64,000 bases of DNA, taken from sequence record JX560968. The stretch is one strand, 5' to 3'. The stretch's first letter is position 1; each line of letters begins with the position of its first letter. The position numbers and the translations under genes are program-made. Shown here one piece after another: positions 1,099-44,129 of this stretch. The stretch is from Escherichia phage EC6. Under the pieces are notes generated by a model. The model was not told the origin of the DNA, searched no databases, and saw nothing but the letters and a program-made list of their open reading frames with translations.

Positions 1099-2202
1099 AT
1101 GTTGACTAATTCTGAAAAAAGCAGATTTTTCCTTGCTGACCTGACTGGTGAAGTCCAGTCTATCCCAAATACTTATGGGTATATTTCCAACTTAGGTCTG
1201 TTCCGTTCAGCACCAATCACCCAAACTACTTTCCTTATGGACTTGACTGATTGGGATGTTAGCTTGCTTGATGCGGTAGACCGTGATAGCCGTAAAGCAG
1301 AGACTAGCGCACCTGAGCGTGTTCGTCAAATCAGCTTCCCAATGATGTACTTCAAAGAAGTTGAAAGCATCACTCCTGATGAAATTCAGGGTGTACGTCA
1401 GCCAGGCACTGCAAACGAGCTTACTACTGAAGCTGTAGTACGTGCTAAGAAGCTGATGAAGATTCGTACCAAGTTCGATATTACTCGTGAGTTCCTGTTT
1501 ATGCAAGCTCTGAAGGGTAAAGTTGTTGATGCTCGTGGTACTCTGTACGCTGACCTGTACAAGCAGTTCGATGTTGAGAAGAAGACTGTTTACTTCGACC
1601 TTGACAACCCTAATGCTGATATCGACGCTTCTATTGAAGAACTGCGTATGCACATGGAAGATGAAGCTAAGACTGGCACTGTAATCAACGGTGAAGAAAT
1701 TCACGTAGTTGTTGACCGTGTGTTCTTCAGCAAGCTGACTAAACATCCTAAGATTCGTGACGCTTATCTTGCACAGCAGACTCCGCTGGCTTGGCAACAG
1801 ATTACTGGTTCTCTGAGAACTGGTGGTACTGACGGCGTTCAGGCTCACATGAACACTTTCTACTACGGTGGTGTTAAGTTTGTCCAGTACAACGGTAAGT
1901 TCAAGGACAAGCGTGGTAAGGTTCACACTCTGGTGAGTATTGATAGTGTAGCAGCAACTGTTGGTGTAGGTCACGCTTTCCCTAACGTTTCTATGCTGGG
2001 TGAAGCAAACAACATCTTCGAAGTGGCTTATGGTCCATGTCCTAAGATGGGTTATGCAAATACACTTGGTCAGGAACTGTATGTATTCGAATACGAAAAA
2101 GACCGTGACGAAGGTATTGACTTTGAAGCTCACTCTTACATGCTGCCATACTGTACTCGTCCTCAGTTGCTGGTAGATGTTCGTGCTGACGCTAAAGGCT
2201 AA
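1099..2202 (+). CDS. major capsid protein (lambda gpE-like family, putative)
   Basis: 367-aa ORF after protease/scaffold/decoration genes; size and order typical of E-like major capsid proteins. Confidence 0.6.
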   Translation: MLTNSEKSRFFLADLTGEVQSIPNTYGYISNLGLFRSAPITQTTFLMDLTDWDVSLLDAVDRDSRKAETSAPERVRQISFPMMYFKEVESITPDEIQGVRQPGTANELTTEAVVRAKKLMKIRTKFDITREFLFMQALKGKVVDARGTLYADLYKQFDVEKKTVYFDLDNPNADIDASIEELRMHMEDEAKTGTVINGEEIHVVVDRVFFSKLTKHPKIRDAYLAQQTPLAWQQITGSLRTGGTDGVQAHMNTFYYGGVKFVQYNGKFKDKRGKVHTLVSIDSVAATVGVGHAFPNVSMLGEANNIFEVAYGPCPKMGYANTLGQELYVFEYEKDRDEGIDFEAHSYMLPYCTRPQLLVDVRADAKG

Positions 2203-2223
2203 TATTCTTAAGGAGGGTTATGA

Positions 2224-2673
2224 ATGTGTTATACAGGCGACCCAGCCAATAACCCTCTTGATAGAGTAAGAATCCTCTGCACAGACACCAATAATGATGA
2301 AATTCTTATTGAACAGTCTGTGCTAGAGTGGTTCTATCTAGAATCTGGAAAGGATGAAAAGAAAGCAGCCATCAAAGCTCTTAAATATTTACTCTTTCAA
2401 GTAGCCAAGATGGGAGATGAGAAAGTTGGTGGTGTTTATTTACGTAACTCTTCCAGATTCAAATCTCTGAAAGCTGTTTATGACGACCTTGTTAAAAGCT
2501 CTGTTTCAGGACTACCCTATGCAGGTGGTATTAATCAGTGTGATATTGACATGCGTCGTCATAATCCTTGCTCTGTCAAGAAATACACAGAATATGGTGA
2601 TGCTGCCAGATACGAAGGCAGAGATTACTGCAACCGTGTTAATGGCGTATTTATTATCGAGCGAGATGAATAA
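2224..2673 (+). CDS. hypothetical head-tail joining/neck protein
   Basis: ORF with AAGGAGGG RBS 8 nt upstream; between capsid and sheath genes. Confidence 0.3.
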   Translation: MCYTGDPANNPLDRVRILCTDTNNDEILIEQSVLEWFYLESGKDEKKAAIKALKYLLFQVAKMGDEKVGGVYLRNSSRFKSLKAVYDDLVKSSVSGLPYAGGINQCDIDMRRHNPCSVKKYTEYGDAARYEGRDYCNRVNGVFIIERDE

Positions 2674-3155
2674 TGGTTAAAAGGGTTATTCACCCCGCTA
2701 GAGCAAAATTAGTCGGGGCTATGAAGAACTTGCAAACGGCTAATGCTCAAGTTGGGTATTTTCAAGAACAAGGTCAACATAGCTCTGGTTTTTCTTATCC
2801 TGCTTTAATGTATTTACAAGAAGTTATTGGGGTTCCTTCAGCTTCTGGTAAAGTATATCGTAGGTTGTTTGAAATCACTATGATGCTAAACAAACAGACC
2901 TTGTTAGAGCAGACTAAGAAGAATCTATATAAGCAACTTAGCAGTCTCAACACAGACCCTTCAAATACCTTAGAAGCATTTGCAAAGAATACTCAAAAGG
3001 CAATTAAAAGGGGTTTTGGTAATTCTGCTATCCTCCCTCCTAACGCACCTTCCACAGTCAAGAAAAAAGGCTTTAACGCACCTCTTGTTGAGACAGGTGA
3101 CTTAAGAGATAACCTTGCTTATAAAATTTCTACTAAGAAGGGTATTAAGAAATGA
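2673..3155 (+). CDS. hypothetical head-tail joining/neck protein
   Basis: Start overlaps stop of upstream ORF (translational coupling); morphogenesis module. Confidence 0.3.
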   Translation: MVKRVIHPARAKLVGAMKNLQTANAQVGYFQEQGQHSSGFSYPALMYLQEVIGVPSASGKVYRRLFEITMMLNKQTLLEQTKKNLYKQLSSLNTDPSNTLEAFAKNTQKAIKRGFGNSAILPPNAPSTVKKKGFNAPLVETGDLRDNLAYKISTKKGIKK

Positions 3156-3553
3156 GACTCTTAAACAGACACAGCTTTGTAGTAAAGCGTAAAGTCTCTG
3201 AAGACGGTTATTATAATGATGATGGTGATTGGGTAGCTTCACAAGATATTGTAGAGGTTAACTGTAAAGGTAATATCCAGCCGTATATCAAAGGTTCTGT
3301 AAAGAATGGTACACAGATTGCTTTACCGGAAGGTATTAGACTTACTGATACAAGAATCCTGTATACCACATATAAACTTAGAACTTCAGATGATGTAGAG
3401 TGGAATGAGTCTGATATTGTTATGATTGATGGTCATGAGTATGAAGTATTTATGACTATGGATTGGTCACAGCAATTAGCCCATACATCCCATTATGAGT
3501 ATATCATTATTAGAAGGGATAAAATGAATGCAGTTAGAAACAGCAGAACTTGA
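3152..3553 (+). CDS. hypothetical virion assembly protein
   Basis: Overlapping start/stop with neighbours in structural module. Confidence 0.3.
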   Translation: MRLLNRHSFVVKRKVSEDGYYNDDGDWVASQDIVEVNCKGNIQPYIKGSVKNGTQIALPEGIRLTDTRILYTTYKLRTSDDVEWNESDIVMIDGHEYEVFMTMDWSQQLAHTSHYEYIIIRRDKMNAVRNSRT

Positions 3554-4127
3554 AAAAGGTCTAGTTAGAACCTTAGTGGATGTTATTGGTCACAGACTAG
3601 CTCGTGATAAAAATAATAGACCAAATGTAATTAGAGCTTACCCTTCTGATAACTCAAATGACAAAGGTTTAAAACCTGACCAGCCATTTATTACCGTATA
3701 TTGTCAAGACGCTGCAACACCTTATGGTTGGGTTCTTGATAAGTTTGTTGAGGATGATGTAGTTTGCTACAGAATTGCTTTTCAGATTCCAGTATTAATT
3801 ACGGTAAATGGTAAAGGTGCTCACAGTATTATGCTTGAGCTTAAACAACGATTAGAGATGAGTTCAGTCAGAGATTTAATTCTTGAAGAGACAGGAGCTA
3901 CAGTTTTAGACACTGGAGCTATCCCAAATGACTACACTTATCTTAATACAGATTTCGAAAATTCTGCACCTCTTGTTGTAACTCTTGTAAAAAATTCAGT
4001 CCTGAAAGATGAACGTGGAAGTATTATTGAGCGTGTCATTGTTGATGGTGAATTAGTTTACGAAGAAGGACAAGAGCCACCAGAATATACTATCCATCTA
4101 GATGTAGACTCCAAAGGGGTAAAATAA
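3528..4127 (+). CDS. hypothetical tail completion/terminator-like protein
   Basis: 199-aa ORF immediately upstream of sheath gene. Confidence 0.3.
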   Translation: MQLETAELEKGLVRTLVDVIGHRLARDKNNRPNVIRAYPSDNSNDKGLKPDQPFITVYCQDAATPYGWVLDKFVEDDVVCYRIAFQIPVLITVNGKGAHSIMLELKQRLEMSSVRDLILEETGATVLDTGAIPNDYTYLNTDFENSAPLVVTLVKNSVLKDERGSIIERVIVDGELVYEEGQEPPEYTIHLDVDSKGVK

Positions 4128-14685: not shown

Positions 14686-15861
14686 ATGGCAGTAGGTGAA
14701 ATTCAAATTAGTGCCTTGCCACAAGCGGCCTTACCAGTTGATTTAAGTGATATCTTCCACCTTAAGCAAGGTGTTGAAGATAAAAGATGTACGCTTGAAC
14801 AGTTGTTAGCACCTCACGCATCTCTGAGGAATAACCCTCATGGTGTAACTAAATCACAAGTTGGTCTTGATAATGTTATTAACTCTCTTCAATTAGTTGC
14901 AGCTAATAACTTATCAGACATTGTGAATGTTGCTGAGGCAAGAGCAAATCTACAAATTATGTCGTCAGAGGAAGTGAATAACTTAATTCAGCAACATATT
15001 GACGACAAAAGTAACCCACACAATACAACGAAAGCACAGGTTGGTTTAAGTAATGTTCAGAACTGGACAACATCTAATCTGTACAATGAAGATGCTGATA
15101 AGTATGCTACCGCGAGAGCAGTGAATAATTTATACAAAGCTATCCAAACATCATATCCAGTAGGGACTATTCATCTATCTGTTAACTCTGCTAACCCGTC
15201 CACTTACTTGCTTTGTGGAGGTACTTGGGAGTTAGTTTCTAAAGGTAGGGCGCTTGTTGGTTATGATACAGAAGCTAGACCTGTTGGTTCAACGTTCGGT
15301 TCTCAGACTGTAGCATTAACAAATAATAATTTACCAGCACACACCCACTCTATCTATTTAACAGGTGGTGGTCATACACACTCTGCAAGTGTATCTATCT
15401 CTAGTTTTGATTATGGTTCAAAGAGTACATCAACTTTTGACTACGGTACGAAGGCAACTAACAGTGCTGGTGCTCACACCCACACATTTAGTGGAACGAC
15501 AAGTAATGAGGGTAACCACAACCATAGAGTACCTCTGAGGGGTAATGATAGAAGTGGGTTAAATGCTATTACCGCATCTGCTGATGCTGGGGTTGGTAAT
15601 GCTTCGTATACTGATTTAGCTGGTGCTCACACCCATAGCTTCTCAGGTACAACTGCATCATCTGGTGCTCATAGTCATACTGTTGCAATTGGTGCTCACA
15701 GCCACACTGTTAATATTGGTTCACACAGTCATACGGGCACTGTTACTGTTTCTAGCTCTGAGCATACACACTCAGGGACATCTGGTTCTGTTGGTGGTGG
15801 TCAAGCTTTCAGTGTTGAGCAGCCATCTTTTGTAGTATATGTGTGGCAGAGAACAGCTTAA
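14686..15861 (+). CDS. tail fiber protein with His-x-His-rich C-terminal tip
   Basis: Repeated NPH(G/N)xTK(S/A)QVGL motifs; C-terminal AHTHSFSGTT, AHSHTVAIGAHSHTVNIGSHSHTG repeats (HxH boxes as in metal-binding fiber tips); ends ...AFSVEQPSFVVYVWQRTA. Confidence 0.5.
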   Translation: MAVGEIQISALPQAALPVDLSDIFHLKQGVEDKRCTLEQLLAPHASLRNNPHGVTKSQVGLDNVINSLQLVAANNLSDIVNVAEARANLQIMSSEEVNNLIQQHIDDKSNPHNTTKAQVGLSNVQNWTTSNLYNEDADKYATARAVNNLYKAIQTSYPVGTIHLSVNSANPSTYLLCGGTWELVSKGRALVGYDTEARPVGSTFGSQTVALTNNNLPAHTHSIYLTGGGHTHSASVSISSFDYGSKSTSTFDYGTKATNSAGAHTHTFSGTTSNEGNHNHRVPLRGNDRSGLNAITASADAGVGNASYTDLAGAHTHSFSGTTASSGAHSHTVAIGAHSHTVNIGSHSHTGTVTVSSSEHTHSGTSGSVGGGQAFSVEQPSFVVYVWQRTA

Positions 15862-15907: not shown

Positions 15908-17533
15908 ATGGCAGATTACAAATTGAGTCAATTAAACTCAATCGACACAATTCGTTCAGAAGACCTATTGCACATCAGAGTTAAGAAAAGACCTGAAATG
16001 TTGGGTGACGAAGACCGTAGAATGACCTATCAAGACTTCTTAGCTTCTTTCAAACTAGAAAGGTTTGTTCAGATTGCTGGGAGCACTATGACGGGGGATT
16101 TAGGTATTGTCAAGTTACTTTACGGTGGTAAGGTAGTATTTGACCCTACAGATTCTTCTGAGATTACTCTTGGGGATATTTTAAAGACTTTTAAAATCAA
16201 CTCAAATGGGCTTAAACTCACTATTGCAGATGCCACAAGGTCAGCAACTGTTTATCATACTTTGAATAAACCAAGTCCTAATGAACTTGGCATGAGAACT
16301 AATGAAGAGAATGATGCAAGATATTCAAGGCTTGCTGTTACAAATAACTTCAGTATTAGGCAAGCAATTGTAACTGATGGTGAGCAGTTAACTCTTAAGA
16401 AGGCAACCAATACAGGTGCTTCATATATTCAAGGTAGAGATGCTAATAACCAGCAAACTTGGTATGTTGGACAGGGAAATGCAAACAGTACTAATGTTTA
16501 TTTGTACAATCATGCTACTGGTGCAATGTTAACCCTTGATGCAACAGCAGCATTTAACAAGTCACTTAGAATCGTTGGTCAAGTTCAACCTTCGGATTTC
16601 TCTAACTTAGATGCTAGATACTTCACTCAGACAGTCGCTAATCAGAGATTTGCACAGTTAGCTGGCAATAATACTTTTACAGGTGCTAATACATTTAATA
16701 ACTATATCAGTGTGAACTCTAATGCTGCTGCTATCGTGCTAAAAAATAAGTCTGCTAATGAGTCTTTGTACATCCTAGCAAAAGATGTTGAAAACAATAA
16801 TCTGTGGTTTATTGGTAAAGGTAGTGCAAATGACAATATCACATTTTATGATTACAAGGGCAATACTTCTATTGTATTAAACTCGTCTGGTGCTGCATTC
16901 AGCAAGACTGTAAAAATCACTGGTCAAGTCCAACCTTCAGATTGGACTAACATTGACTCTAGATATATTCCGGCAGCTACTTTGAGCAATCTTGCTAAAA
17001 TTAATGTAGCTAACACATTTACCTCCCAGCAAATTATCCAAGCAAATGGTGAAGCTATTAGGCTAAAAAACTCTTCTGAGAACTCACCATTGTATATCAG
17101 AGCACAGGACAACACTGGTGCTTATAGGTGGTATGTAGGTAATGGCTCGGGGGGTGATGATGTCACCATCCGCAATCACAAGACAGATTGTGAGGTTATC
17201 CTATCTAGTGTCGTTGCTATTAATAAAACATTAAGCATCACTGGTCAAGTTAAACCCTCAGATTTCTCTAACTTAGATGCTAGATATTACACGCAATCTA
17301 CCGCAAACTCTAGGTATATGCTTGCTTACTCTTCTGGCAGTGGTACAGAGGTGGGTGAGAGTGATGGTATTGTTTGGAATGCTAAAACTGGTCTGTATAA
17401 TGTGTATGATAAATCTGGTGGCGCAACACAGCTAGTCTACCATATGTATCAGGGTGCAAGTTCTACACCATCTGCACAGTTTAAGTTTATCTACAGGAAT
17501 GGTGGTAGTTTTTTACAGGACAGCACGAGATAG
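15908..17533 (+). CDS. tail fiber protein with three internal ~110-aa repeats
   Basis: Each repeat ends ITGQV(Q/K)PSD(F/W)(S/T)N(L/I)D(A/S)RY; near-identical DNA copies at 16576-16620 and 17243-17287. Confidence 0.55.
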   Translation: MADYKLSQLNSIDTIRSEDLLHIRVKKRPEMLGDEDRRMTYQDFLASFKLERFVQIAGSTMTGDLGIVKLLYGGKVVFDPTDSSEITLGDILKTFKINSNGLKLTIADATRSATVYHTLNKPSPNELGMRTNEENDARYSRLAVTNNFSIRQAIVTDGEQLTLKKATNTGASYIQGRDANNQQTWYVGQGNANSTNVYLYNHATGAMLTLDATAAFNKSLRIVGQVQPSDFSNLDARYFTQTVANQRFAQLAGNNTFTGANTFNNYISVNSNAAAIVLKNKSANESLYILAKDVENNNLWFIGKGSANDNITFYDYKGNTSIVLNSSGAAFSKTVKITGQVQPSDWTNIDSRYIPAATLSNLAKINVANTFTSQQIIQANGEAIRLKNSSENSPLYIRAQDNTGAYRWYVGNGSGGDDVTIRNHKTDCEVILSSVVAINKTLSITGQVKPSDFSNLDARYYTQSTANSRYMLAYSSGSGTEVGESDGIVWNAKTGLYNVYDKSGGATQLVYHMYQGASSTPSAQFKFIYRNGGSFLQDSTR

Positions 17534-18278
17534 GTATGGTTTTGAGCAGGCATGGGCTAAAATCTATACAGACCAAGATAAACCAACCCCTTCAGAGATT
17601 GGTGCATACACTAAAGCTGAAACTGACCAGAAGATTGCAGAAGCAATCAGTGACTCTACAGACTTGAATAAAATCTATCCAGTAGGTATTGTAACGTGGT
17701 TTAACAGTAATGTTAACCCTAATACAGCACTTCCTGGTCTAACTTGGACGTACCTGAATAATGGTGTTGGTAGAACTATCAGAATTGCAGCAGCAAATGG
17801 TTCAGATGTTGCTACAACTGGTGGTTCAGACTCTGTAACGTTATCTGTTGGTAACTTACCTTCACATACGCATAGCTTCTCTGCTACCACTTCATCATTT
17901 GATTATGGTACTAAGACTTCTAGTACAACTGGTAACCATAACCATAACAGAGGTACTATGGAAATCTCAGGTGCATTTGGTTGGTTCAGAAGTGACAATA
18001 GTTCATTCTACACTGCGAGTGGAGCATTCGTGATGGGGAGCAGTCAGGCTTCGCATGGCTTCACAGGCTCTAACTTCACTTATGGTGCTCCTGTTGATTT
18101 CCACGCGTCAAGAACTTGGACAGGTGCAACCAACACAACAGGTAACCATAGCCATACTGTAGGTATTGGTGCTCACAGCCACACAGTTAGTGGTAACACA
18201 GGTGGTACTGGTTCTGGTTCAGCATTTAGTGTTACTAACCAGTTCTACAAGTTAATGGCTTGGGTAAGAACTGCTTAA
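17454..18278 (+). CDS. tail fiber C-terminal tip domain (separate ORF, or 3' part of 15908 gene after a +1 frame change at T6 run 17509-17514)
   Basis: HxH boxes (SHTHSFSATT, NHNHNRGT, NHSHTVGIGAHSHTVSG) and C-terminus ...AFSVTNQFYKLMAWVRTA paralogous to tip of 14686..15861; no convincing own RBS/start. Confidence 0.45.
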   Translation: MQVLHHLHSLSLSTGMVVVFYRTARDRYGFEQAWAKIYTDQDKPTPSEIGAYTKAETDQKIAEAISDSTDLNKIYPVGIVTWFNSNVNPNTALPGLTWTYLNNGVGRTIRIAAANGSDVATTGGSDSVTLSVGNLPSHTHSFSATTSSFDYGTKTSSTTGNHNHNRGTMEISGAFGWFRSDNSSFYTASGAFVMGSSQASHGFTGSNFTYGAPVDFHASRTWTGATNTTGNHSHTVGIGAHSHTVSGNTGGTGSGSAFSVTNQFYKLMAWVRTA

Positions 18279-26000: not shown

Positions 26001-26805
26001 CATCTGGTCAATACACTCGCAAGGTGTACCAGTTCTCTTATGAACTTCTCCGCATTTCTACGGAGTGTCGGACTATATCACGCAGTAGTAATACTACCGT
26101 TGCACTTGGGAATGGTCATTAGCTTACCACCCTACTCTACTCAGTTCATACATTAAGTATGCTTTTCGATAGTCTCTGAACGTTTCTCTGTTAGGAACTC
26201 TAAAATACTATTATTTACTAAGGTATGCAATTGCTCTCTTCATGTTCTCTATACTATCTGAGAACAGCCCAAGACCTCTGTTACAGTTGTGACACAGCAT
26301 ACCTCTTACCTGTCCTGTTTTGTGGTCATGGTCAACAACCAGCTTGGCTTTATGTCTTGAACCATCCATGATAAAACCTTCACCACCGCAGATTTGACAC
26401 TTGTGACCACACTTACTTAGTAACTCTTCGACCTCTTCTCTTTCTAAGCCGTAAGTCCTTAAGTAATAGTTCTTTACCCTTCCCTTTTCTCCACAAGCAG
26501 AACTGCAATACGTCTGTCTTGCTGTTCTAGGTGTAAACTGGTTATTGCAGCTTGGACATATTTTCTCTATGACACGACTTGCTGCTCTTCTGTCTACTTC
26601 AAGAACGCAGTTTCTACAACGTTTTTGATTGTACTGATATGGCTTAAACTCTTCGCCACATCTGGAACAAACTCTTTCTTTATAACCTGCCATTGTCTCT
26701 CTCCCATTTCTACTATAGGAGTCCTAACAGAGACTTCGCTGCTGATTACCATATCTTTACAGACTTAGGCTTCCAGCAATTCACAACGTTTTACATGCGC
26801 CACTG
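26001..26805 (-). mobile_element. group I intron (about 805 nt) in DNA polymerase gene, carrying an HNH homing endonuclease ORF
   Basis: Exon 1 ends ...AUCUAUGCGU; intron starts CAGUG-GCGCAU (P1: exon AUGCGU pairs with GCGCAU, U-G at splice site); intron ends ...GACCAGAUG; 3' part has GACUAUCG, GUAGGGU, GAUAUAGUCC elements like T4 td-type introns; joined exons restore ...KAKNGIYA-LLFGAGDEK. Confidence 0.6.
26211..26693 (-). CDS. HNH homing endonuclease (endonuclease VII-like) inside the intron
   Basis: Cys-rich zinc-binding N-terminus and HNH core LVVDHDHKTGQVRGMLCHNCNRGLG. Confidence 0.7.
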   Translation of the reverse strand: MAGYKERVCSRCGEEFKPYQYNQKRCRNCVLEVDRRAASRVIEKICPSCNNQFTPRTARQTYCSSACGEKGRVKNYYLRTYGLEREEVEELLSKCGHKCQICGGEGFIMDGSRHKAKLVVDHDHKTGQVRGMLCHNCNRGLGLFSDSIENMKRAIAYLSK

Positions 26806-28948
26806 ACGCATAGATACCATTCTTAGCCTTCTTACGGCCTTTAGTTATCTCGTGAAGAAGTTCTTCATCCTGAGTTTCTCTACAACGAATAATGTCATCC
26901 TCTTTGTTCAATGCAAAGTAGATGCTGTTAAGCGTATGTGCATCAGTACCTGTATACACCTCATATAAGTCATTATCCATATCGTAACGACAATACTTGT
27001 CAGTCTCTGGATTGAGGTACTTGTCAAGATGTTTGCAGTAGTACCGTCCATCATCCTGTTTAGTGAACTCGACAAACTCTTTACCTTCAGTTACTGCTTT
27101 AGTGAACTCTTTATCACCCATAAAGTTACACAGTAAAACAAGCTGTGCAGAGTTCTGGTCAACTGAAACGATGTTAGTCCCTTCCTCACAAATCCACACC
27201 TCCCTCATAGGTGCTCCATAGACAGCAGCACCAGATGGTACGTTTACAATACCATACTGCGTCATACGTCCAGTTGAAGTACCAAACACCATTGCACCAG
27301 CACTAAGGCGACCATCTGGACGAATCTGGTTCAACCAACCTTTTTCATCATCCTTTGAGTTCTCAATAGTTCTGCGTCGGTGCATCAAAGTATAGTACTT
27401 AGCAATCTTCTGTCCAAGTTCACCTTCAATCGTATCATAAGATGATTCAGTAAGTTTTGGTGAAGTACGGATTAAGCAAGGCTCAAGCAAATCTGTGTAC
27501 TTCTTCACAGACCAGTTATGCTCAATGTACTGTACACCTTCATGTTCAACATAACTCAAACCACACCGCTCAACCATTTCCTGCCACTTAGGATGCTTTG
27601 TAATCATCTTTTTATTGTCTTTGAAACGACAAACTTTGACAGGGTGACCATCTGAGTCTTTCTTGTAGTTCCAGTCATCTGGAATCCAACCAACTGATTT
27701 CAAGTAGTCTTTAACAACTGCTACCTGAGTCATACGAGAAACTTCAAACTCAATTGGTGTATATGGTGCATCAATCAAACCTGTGTAGCGACTTGACTCA
27801 AGTTCAAAGTGGTTAACAACGTGGCTGTTATAGTACTTCACAGTTTTGACTGTTTTTACTGGCTTCCAGTCTTTGCATTTCTTACCAATCTTTGCATTCA
27901 ACTCATTGCAAATTGCACGAGCATCCTTCATTGCTACAAAGCCTTCCTTGTACTCTTCACCAGTTACAGAGTTGGTTGGTGTATAGCAATTTCTCTTTTC
28001 AATGTTAAAAATCTTTGTAGTTGGCTTACCAAATGGCTTGATTTCGTATGTCTGCATCTCACCGTTACGTACCTGCTGACGATACTTTGTCTTAGGATAC
28101 TTGGTAATCCTCTTCAGTCCATCTGCATGACCAAATGTTTCAACATACTCATTCCAAGCTTTTGCAAACTCTTCTCCAGTGACTTTACCTTTGGTCTTAA
28201 TAGTTGGAGGAAGATGTGGTTCAACCTCTGAAGCAAGCTCATTAGTCAACTTGTCAAGTTCCTTTACATGGAACTCCATAAGCTCTTTATCAGCTTTCCA
28301 ACCATTGATAGCTTGTTGACTCATCCAGAAAGATGTTTCTTTAGCTCGCATGTAAGTTTCATAAGTGTCTATACCACACTTCTTAAGCTTGAGATACTCG
28401 TTATCAAGTGCCCGTTTAGTTTTGGCGTTAATACGGATATCTTCTACAACACGAGTGAAGATTTCTGCATTCCACACACCCCAATGTTCAATCTCTGGTT
28501 TACGAACACCAACACGAGCACCCCATGCAGCCAAACCATGAGCACCTTTATAACCCTTTGGAGTTGGTCTATCCATCCACTGAACACGAGACTGGATAAG
28601 AGAATCCTGAAAGAAATTACTCCACGGTTTACACTTTGGATTATCAAAGTTCCATAAATCAGGTGCAATGTGATTGAAAACCCACCAGTCATAACCGAGA
28701 CCGTTGTGGATGCAAAGACGTTTTGCCTTTAACGCAAACTCAATACCTTCACGTAAGCCACCCTTGATGTACTTGGTATACTTGTGACCGAGGATAGGCT
28801 CATCTGTAAAGACCCATACAGGTGGCTCTTCATCATCAGATTTATAGTCTGCGAAAGCCATTACGTGCACTTTAGTGAACTCAAGGAGTAAACCATCAGT
28901 TTCTGTATCACCAACTAAATGTAAGTTTTTAAAATCTACGTTTTCCAT
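26806..28948 (-). CDS. family A DNA polymerase, exon 1 (3'-5' exonuclease and N-terminal polymerase domains)
   Basis: Exo motif LVGDTETDGL (cf. Pol I DTETDSL); ends ...GRKKAKNGIYA (first half of motif B); likely start is ATG at 28948 (GAGGGAG RBS) rather than track start 28978. Confidence 0.75.
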
Positions 28949-29894: not shown

Positions 29895-30440
29895 ATGCAA
29901 AAGAATGACTATATCAGGATGTCAGACGAAGATAAGGAACTGTTGCTGACTAAGGACACTGATTTCATTATTGATACACTTATCTCATCAACAAGTGCTG
30001 TTATGGCTGTTCTTGAGAAGCGTATGGAAGAGAAACTTTCACGATATGAAAAACTTGATTGGGGCGTAGAAGAATTAAACCCACGAATCAAAGAGATTAT
30101 CCAGCAAACTAAAGAGTCTTTGGAAGAAGCTGTTGAAAATGACTCTGTAGCTGACATTGAACCACTTCAGGTGAAAGTTGCACTGATGATTCCAGCTATC
30201 TCTACGATGATGAATATCGTTGCACTAATCCAACTGTCACAGATGATGGGTGTGAGTATTGAGTTCATTGAGGAAATGACTGGTGGCGTTAGTATGCAAG
30301 CAATCAATGATGTTTTGGTGAACATTGGTGCTTCAATCATTGAAGAGAAACTACGCATTAACTTCGGTGATGATTTTGTGAAGCAAATCTCAGCTATGGC
30401 TGAAAAGAGTCTGCTGAGCAACTGCACTAAGTCTTTATAA
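29895..30440 (+). CDS. hypothetical protein
   Basis: ATG at 29895 overlaps upstream stop (ATGA-type coupling); track ORF 29835 starts further upstream. Confidence 0.3.
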   Translation: MQKNDYIRMSDEDKELLLTKDTDFIIDTLISSTSAVMAVLEKRMEEKLSRYEKLDWGVEELNPRIKEIIQQTKESLEEAVENDSVADIEPLQVKVALMIPAISTMMNIVALIQLSQMMGVSIEFIEEMTGGVSMQAINDVLVNIGASIIEEKLRINFGDDFVKQISAMAEKSLLSNCTKSL

Positions 30441-42616: not shown

Positions 42617-43813
42617 ATGAACAAAGTACAAATTATTAAAAAGAATGGCTCACTTGAAGAACCGGATATCAAAAAAGTTTTAGCAGCAGTCACAAAGTCG
42701 GCTAATAGGGTTGGTTATAAAGAGCTTCCACCAGATGTTACTCAAGCTCTTGAGTCAGCATTTATGAGGATTCTGGTAAAATCTACTAAACAGAATAATT
42801 TGCTAATCTCGGTAAATGATATCCACAGTATTGTTGAGGGTGCTTTGGCAGAAGTCAATCATGAGATTTATGAGTCTTACTCAACATATAGAAATTACCG
42901 TAAAGAGGTTGCTCAAAATTGGGATGAGCTTTACCAAAAGACTAAAGACACACTCTTCTTAGGTGACCGTGAAAACGCTAACTTTGACAGTAGTTTAATT
43001 TCTACAAAAGGTTCAATTATTCGTGGTTACCTGACTAAAGAAATCTTTAAACAGTACCATTTAACACCAGAGGAACTTGAAGCCATTGAAAAAGGGTTTA
43101 TCTATATTCATGATTTAAGAGACCTGATTTTTGGTGGTATCAACTGTTGCCTGTTTGACATTGGTAAAGTGCTGAAAGGTGGCTTTGAAATGTCTGGCAT
43201 TGAATACTGTGAACCAAAGTCTGTACTGTCAGCTTTACAGGTTATTGGTGATGTAGTTCTTTCAGCAACTGCACAGCAATTTGGTGGCTTTACTTTAGCA
43301 GAGATTGATAAGGTACTTGTACCGTATGCTAAGAAGTCTCTACGTTACCATGCTGAAAAAGCAACAGCTTATGGTATTCCTAAAGAACATTACCACAACT
43401 ATGTCATGGAGCAGCTACAGATTGAATTAACTCAAGGTTTTCAGTCTCTTGAAATGAAGCTCAATACCGTACCTTGTAGCCGTGGTGATTTTGCATTCAC
43501 AACTTTAACATTTGGTTTACTTGACCCAGACATGTCTAATGAAGACAACCGATTACAATACATGATTGCAAGTACCCTCCTAGATGTTCGTATGAATGGA
43601 CAAGGTAAGAGCAAGAAGCCTGTTGTATTTCCTAAACTGGTTTATATTTATGACCAGAAGAGACACGATGAGAATATCTGTCAAGGACACCTGTACAGTA
43701 AAGCCATTGAGTGTTGCTCTAAAGCAATGTATCCAGATTTCTTAAGTGTATCTGGTCATGGTGCTGTAGCAGAGGCTTTTGAGCGTTCTGGTAAGGTTAT
43801 TTCACCGATGGGT
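42617..43813 (+). CDS. nrdD: anaerobic ribonucleoside-triphosphate reductase, exon 1
   Basis: N-terminal ATP-cone (IIKKNGSLEEPDIKKV); ORF ends ...ISPMG where intron begins with UAA. Confidence 0.75.
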
Positions 43814-44129
43814 TAACAAGCTCTATAGCTCATCTAAAACGTGCCTAAACAGGGAAACTCTACAGATGTAGACAATCCTGTGCTAAATGATGTATGATGT
43901 AAGAAACTATACAACATAGGAGTCTTACATGCCAAATAACTTCGAATATGAGTTTGAATACATCTAAATGCCGAACGACTAACCGTGATGAATGTAGCGG
44001 TGTAGGGTCAAGCGACTCGAAATGGTACGCTACTTAGAAATAAGTAGAAGATATAGTCTGGACTTACTGGCGACAGTAAGCAGCTTGAATAAAGCGGGGT
44101 AAGCTTAGCGAACTTACCTGAACAACAAG
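43814..44129 (+). mobile_element. ORF-less group I intron (about 316 nt) in nrdD
   Basis: Starts UAACAAGCUC right after exon AUGGGU (P1 with intron GCUCAU at 43828-43833); core resembles T4 td-type introns (CUAAACAGGGAAACUCUACAGAUGUAGACAAUCCUGUGCUAAAU; GUAGGGUCAAGCGACUCGAAA; GAUAUAGUCUGG); ends ...CUGAACAACAAG; exon 2 resumes in frame. Confidence 0.7.

Follow-up and report, generated by a model that had tools for sequence, protein, structure and literature searches.

An extra G beside a T6 run splits a single long tail fibre gene in the sequence of Escherichia phage EC6

The region 15908-18278 of the window, i.e. the whole stretch of 64,000 nucleotides of Escherichia phage EC6 DNA analysed in this study (JX560968), was shown to be one gene by ancestry, namely the long tail fibre (LTF) gene of a Felixounavirus and the orthologue of Bas63 gp27. 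The true gene is almost certainly one LTF gene of 789 codons. In the window, this gene is interrupted by an extra G at position 17508, and we consider it highly probable that the G is an artefact of sequencing or assembly associated with the adjoining homopolymer. The extra base would most likely be missing from the phage DNA itself and would have arisen by a base-calling or assembly error beside the run. An ORF of 541 codons and its continuation in the +1 frame would then represent a single LTF of 789 residues split by G 17508. In the restored chain, an N-terminal part predicted to bind the baseplate is followed by three gp37_trimer repeats, by gp37_C, and by a predicted receptor-binding HxH tip resembling that of T4 gp37.

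Frames and domains of the split gene

The features of the fibre locus are as follows.

15908..17507, + strand: 5' part of the LTF gene, extending from codon 1 to the first base of codon 534 (ORF list, Pfam, and identity to PHB11)
17508, + strand: frame-shifting extra G (alignments with relatives)
17509..17514, + strand: T6 run, the context of the G insertion (length as in the intact PHB11 gene)
17531..17533, + strand: premature stop (TAG) reached after the shift; read in the true frame, its bases belong to GAT AGG (Asp-Arg)
17509..18278, + strand: remaining 3' portion of the LTF gene, read in the +1 frame (Pfam, identity to PHB11, and codon differences)
14686..15861, + strand: short tail fibre gene, Bas63 gp26 orthologue (synteny, relatives' annotation, Pfam, and PMC12609058)

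A run of six T residues (T6) was read from the window sequence at 17509-17514 on the + strand. ORF 15908..17533 (+), encoding 541 aa, stops at a TAG (17531-17533) that lies five sense codons past this run, and the +1 frame is open from 17436 to a stop at 18276-18278 and encodes an HxH-rich C-terminal domain. A preliminary description of this DNA had reported the T6 run, the ORF ending just beyond it, and the HxH tip in the +1 frame, all of which were found as described. Between 17436 and 17533 (98 nt) the two frames overlap, and this stretch contains three start codons in the +1 frame. There was no Shine-Dalgarno match at a usable spacing for GTG 17454 and ATG 17499, and GTG 17502 was preceded only by AGGA at a spacing of 3, compared with a match of at least 4 nt in 43 of the 51 mapped real genes of the window. 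The earlier statement that the +1 frame has no convincing start or ribosome-binding site was thus borne out.

TTTTTT was matched 52 times on both strands of the window, against approximately 134 matches expected from shuffles, indicating that the T6 run as such is nothing unusual. At the junction, the sequence AGU UUU UUA has the character of a slippery sequence on which +1 re-pairing of tRNA-Phe is possible, and slippage could restore the LTF frame at no other place than T6. Since the intact gene of the related phage PHB11 carries the same T6, this slippery run is no specialised feature.

The 5' part of the gene encodes the baseplate-binding N-terminus, all three gp37_trimer repeats, and the beginning of gp37_C, whereas the 3' part encodes the rest of gp37_C and a putative receptor-binding tip, which comprises a collar/Gp10_C-like domain and an HxH needle. 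Pfam analysis divided gp37_C (PF12604, 95 positions) between the frames, positions 1-58 falling to the 541-aa ORF and 67-95 to the +1 ORF. In the repaired 789-aa protein, PF12604 was complete (1-95 of 95 positions, 77.3 bits), PF20744 (gp37_trimer) was matched in three stretches (212.9 bits), and PF21939 (Gp10_C) scored 23.5 bits, under its cut-off of 27. The domain set of an LTF is therefore present, from the gp37_trimer repeats through gp37_C to the HxH tip with its collar/Gp10_C-like domain. The shaft (15908-17330) contains three tandem repeats of approximately 110 aa, each of which matches gp37_trimer and ends in a motif like ITGQVQPSDFSNLDARY.

Known fibre structures showed similarity to the part of the protein around and beyond the junction. 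The gp37_C region matched the tail fibre protein S of phage Mu (PDB 8JU3) with an E value of 8.5e-24, and this alignment continued unbroken across the junction motif YRNGGIFYR.ARD.YGFE. The T4 gp37 tip (PDB 2XGF), which is likewise of the HxH needle type, gave a weak sequence match over LTF residues 647-768 (E = 5e-4). Unlike in T4, in which the long fibre is distributed over four proteins (gp34-37), the fibre here is one chain carrying both the baseplate attachment and the tip (PMC12609058).

In Bas63, cryo-EM identified a long tail fibre of 630 Å, formed by gp27, and a short one of 430 Å, formed by gp26 (PMC12609058), and 14686-15861 and 15908-18278 of the window were accordingly assigned to the short and the long fibre, respectively. 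The Bas63 long fibre was seen in the virion and is trimeric and receptor-binding (PMC12609058). The tip of the short fibre matched Pfam Gp10_C at 1.1e-18. Both tips match Gp10_C and are approximately 30% identical to each other by tblastn, which confirms the paralogy between the LTF tip and that of the upstream fibre noticed in the preliminary description. The DNA identity that had been located at 15697 and 18164 also proved to be real, although its coordinates had to be corrected: it is a 20-mer, ATTGGTGCTCACAGCCACAC, found in two exact copies against 0 expected.

15688..15707, + strand: copy 1 of the shared 20-mer, encoding IGAHSHT in the short-fibre tip
18165..18184, + strand: copy 2 of the shared 20-mer, in the long-fibre tip

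The fibre locus in related phages

The window genome belongs to Felixounavirus, the Felix O1-like myophages of the subfamily Ounavirinae, and shows approximately 96-97% identity to several E. coli and Salmonella phages. Its ORFs are arranged in the order of baseplate genes, short fibre, long fibre, two small ORFs, and then thyA and the DHFR gene (opposite strand), which matches the annotated order in PHB11, Shy, HY02, and Bas63. At the position of the split gene, a single tail fibre CDS of approximately 2.35-2.55 kb is annotated in PHB11, Shy, HY02, SME50, L27, Ro111lw, DE17, and Bas63. The junction motif could be located at 26 related loci from GenBank and IMG/VR. At all 26, it lay deep inside one open frame, at least 511 residues in, and the stop-to-stop frames were 785-872 aa long unless the gene was cut by the end of a record or contig; none of the 26 loci was split at the junction point. 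The alignment to related fibre genes that had been proposed as a check thus revealed one uninterrupted fibre gene in every relative examined. For the window, full-length similarity in a single chain (approximately 785-870 aa) was obtained only when G17508 was removed, since the sequence as written is distributed over two frames.

The PHB11 tail fibre (QBJ00652.1, 789 aa) shows 95.9% nucleotide identity to the window over this region. At the amino acid level, the 541-aa ORF was 95.9% identical to PHB11 LTF residues 1-537 and the +1 ORF was 94.5% identical to residues 534-789. In the alignment, the window sequence GGTGGTA-G-TTTTTT-ACAGG corresponds to GGTGGTA-TTTTTT-ACAGG in PHB11, in which T6 is the same, no G lies between GGTA and TTTTTT, and the gene is intact. 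The frame change is therefore not due to the number of T residues, and an error in the length of the run (T6 being really T5 or T7) was ruled out as its cause. G 17508, which sits directly 5' of T6 and converts the Ile codon ATT to AGTT, is absent from all aligned relatives. Furthermore, all 14 GenBank matches with full coverage of window 17380-17640 were 1 nt shorter than the window, a count that allows for a few alignments ending 1-2 nt before the query end. When G17508 was deleted, a 789-aa translation without an internal stop was obtained, which has the same length as the PHB11 protein; 102 of the 2370 bases differ. The earlier suggestion of a single fibre (about 790 aa) interrupted by an indel in a homopolymer was thus right about the single gene (789 codons) and about a break located at a homopolymer, but the lesion is the inserted G and not a change in the T count.

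Codon differences between the tip and PHB11 were 35 synonymous to 13 non-synonymous in the tip's own frame, compared with 4:43 and 3:43 in the other two frames. These ratios indicate that the tip has evolved as a coding sequence, under selection in its own frame.

Similar results were obtained with gp27 of Bas63 (Escherichia phage JohannRWettstein), which also lies between the short fibre gene and the two small ORFs, thyA, and the DHFR gene. The repaired 789-aa window protein aligned with gp27 end to end at 66% identity, and both proteins have the C-terminal end ...GIGAHSHTVSGNTGGTGSGSAFSVTNQFYKLMAWVRTA in common. They differ in that the window frame is split by the extra G 17508, and in the middle of the tip (approximately residues 680-745), where the window has another variant; four HxH motifs were read from the translation of the window tip, compared with six reported for Bas63. 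Here the head region probably represents a host-range variant. In the same part of the tip (window approximately 17945-18140), an insert, RGTMEISGAFGWFRSDNSS...FTYGAPVDFHASRTWTG, was observed that resembles the tip of Shigella phage vB_SflM_004.

In a large protein collection, the top matches to the tip domain were proteins of 239-405 aa with differing start positions. One of them (P0006) was traced to MK295205.1, the record of Shigella phage vB_SflM_004, in which the orthologous fibre region (1327-3879) is broken up into four called ORFs (101, 128, 113, and 292 aa). MK295205.1 thus seems to be another assembly with frameshifts in the LTF gene; it is comparable to the window as a broken long-fibre gene in a public Felixounavirus-like record, and differs from it by having four ORFs instead of a single break in the fibre. 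Another tip protein (P0007) is labelled partial, and the match in REP7 lies near the end of its record. Stand-alone tip proteins were rejected as support for two genes because of their varying starts, the partial label of P0007, and the fragmented record of P0006. The same search returned no full-length fibre near-identical to that of the window, such as PHB11 QBJ00652.1, and its best full-coverage matches were 64-70% identical. The collection therefore seems to be without the closest relatives, and its length distribution is no fair sample for counting intact and split fibres.

The mutated 24-mer had no match in IMG/VR or in JGI metagenomes. However, the intact 23-mer of PHB11 was likewise without a match in IMG/VR, so that the missing 24-mer there is weak evidence. 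An exact match to the 541-aa product was not found in public assemblies.

One-base indels at other A/T runs

All PHB11 proteins were mapped onto the window to detect frame changes. A change of frame was found in six window genes, encoding the long fibre, a 270-aa 'minor tail protein', hypothetical proteins of 93 aa and 165 aa, NrdG, and rIIA, and in each of them the frame switched within a few bases. Two further genes, those of an exonuclease and of a 131-aa hypothetical protein, had lost their first codons. The indel sites were then aligned with PHB11, DE17, Ro111lw, and KEP3, each site against three to four concordant relatives. The window was the odd one out at all eight sites, every one of which lies at an A/T run:

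17508: G added before T6
29883: G added before T6
34840: C added after A7
36584: C added after A6
52222: C added after A6
33460: A6 shortened to A5
46182: A6 shortened to A5
45441: one base missing at an A run

Besides 17508, an extra base beside the run was thus found at four sites and a missing base at an A run at three. When all eight indels are considered on one strand, five are identical in kind, a C being added after an A run. The gene-level test for frame switches, conducted with the same set of PHB11 genes, gave six in the window versus 0, 0, and 0 in DE17, Ro111lw, and KEP3, respectively. Since small private indels are numerous in the relatives as well, in divergent or intergenic sequence, the raw number of private indels per genome does not discriminate between the genomes, whereas the gene-level test does.

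Near the 3' end of the gene of the 270-aa 'minor tail protein', a net deficit of 13 nt compared with four relatives was observed at window 30406-30414. The PHB11 'minor tail protein' matched the window only to residue 259 of 270, indicating that the C-terminus of the window protein differs.

Two further genes of the window were found to contain insertions. A group I intron was found by Rfam (RF00028, 53.6 bits; gathering score, 50) at 43756-44080 (+) in nrdD, the gene of the anaerobic ribonucleotide reductase; in PHB11, DE17, and Ro111lw, nrdD is annotated as one uninterrupted CDS with no such insertion. The DNA polymerase gene on the - strand is interrupted at 26001-26807 by an insertion of approximately 806 nt that is absent from PHB11 and in which no Rfam intron match was found. 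This insertion holds an ORF (26211-26693, - strand, 160 aa) whose HNH-like motif, DHDHKTGQVRGMLCHNCN, suggests that the product is probably a homing endonuclease, encoded in an intron or in a free-standing insertion.

Origin of the inserted G and its meaning

The indel in the LTF gene is private to one assembly, and the relatives agree with one another at this site. Indels of the same type were found at other homopolymers of the window, where unrelated conserved genes are broken, and the control genomes were clean. Because seven further one-base indels of the same kind break other genes, G 17508 is most likely a sequencing error, and one systematic read error would account for all eight sites. 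Eight independent real frameshifts, some of them in structural genes, do not fit well with a viable phage, although rIIA, NrdG, and the small hypothetical proteins among the broken genes could be dispensable in a real phage. The inserted base is G and not T, which speaks against an artefact in that it is unlike the classic error in homopolymer length; though not classic, insertion of a G beside a run is a recurrent error type of the window assembly. Carry-over in flow-based sequencing (454 or Ion Torrent, nucleotides flowed in the order T-A-C-G) could plausibly place a spurious C behind a long A run. Both features of the window assembly, the Cs added after A runs and the under-called A runs, would be expected of such sequencing, and the chemistry used may have been of this type.

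It is unlikely that G 17508 is instead a real, recent frameshift, by which the LTF would be truncated and lose its receptor-binding tip. The phage would then have to survive with the short fibre, or by rare +1 ribosomal or transcriptional slippage on T6, where AGU UUU UUA would be read as AGU UUU (U)UAC to give a full-length fibre with Ile534Ser as the only change. By the transcriptional route, the mRNA would lack one U. Such a mutation would be consistent with the position of T6, which occupies the very site at which tRNA-Phe would have to slip by +1 for the frame to be restored, and with the presence of a second fibre with its own tip. Tail fibre genes were also selection targets in Felixounavirus challenge experiments, and the fibre changes reported in that study were substitutions, not frameshifts (PMC6669636). 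However, seven other private indels of this type occur in unrelated genes of the window, compared with none in three relatives, and eight independent frameshifts, five of which would be the same unusual event, are far less likely than a systematic read error. Furthermore, slippage by DNA polymerase alters the length of a run and adds no different base. The LTF tip bears no sign of decay, which shows only that the event would be recent. A still more demanding version, to which we assign a very low probability, is that the G is real and that the phage depends on low-level +1 slippage on T6 for a few full-length Ile534Ser fibres. If true, this would represent a natural frameshifted receptor-binding protein rescued by recoding, and the stoichiometry of the fibres or the host range might be altered.

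Programmed recoding at T6, by a +1 ribosomal frameshift or by transcriptional slippage, would yield two fibres, one short and one long, from a single locus and would make use of the slippery U-rich run at the frame junction and of the 0-frame stop close behind it. Such events are conserved across relatives, whereas the frame change found here is private to one assembly with seven other indels; the two-frame arrangement is not conserved, the gene being single-frame at every related locus at which the junction was located, and in PHB11 with the same T6. The literature yielded no account of frameshifting, whether programmed or natural, in Felixounavirus fibres, and we regard this explanation as extremely improbable. 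Hardly any more credence can be given to two real genes, in which a 541-aa shaft would be joined non-covalently, like T4 gp36 and gp37, by a separately translated tip of approximately 255-275 aa starting at GTG 17454, ATG 17499, or GTG 17502, possibly by termination-reinitiation. The 98-nt overlap of the frames (17436-17533) with its three in-frame start codons, the AGGA 3 nt upstream of GTG 17502, and the occurrence in public protein sets of short proteins that are little more than a tip would agree with this arrangement. Nevertheless, the candidate starts are ordinary internal codons that are the same in the intact PHB11 gene, and the short public proteins differ in their starts, those other than the traced one appearing to be cut by the ends of records or contigs. 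The tip was found to have no start of its own with a ribosome-binding site, and the boundary between the frames is not a domain boundary but falls inside a single Pfam domain, gp37_C, and inside a conserved motif. The preliminary description had left two separate genes as an option; with gp37_C cut in two, no proper second start, and a split at this point in 0 of the 26 related loci at which the junction was located, this option found no support.

The LTF gene is an ordinary, already known gene, and the one-base insertion by the homopolymer is very probably a mistake in the sequence as deposited. A real G would leave the shaft and the receptor-binding tip without their covalent link, which would matter for the prediction of host range and for phage engineering, but the evidence points the opposite way. 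Since at least eight one-base indels are present at A/T runs, caution is advisable for other truncations and overlapping frames in this sequence, including those of rIIA, NrdG, and the exonuclease start. The value of the finding lies mostly in quality control, in that it flags an indel-prone assembly and prevents misannotation: the locus should be annotated as one LTF gene, or as a frameshifted one, and not as a shaft gene followed by an orphan tip gene.
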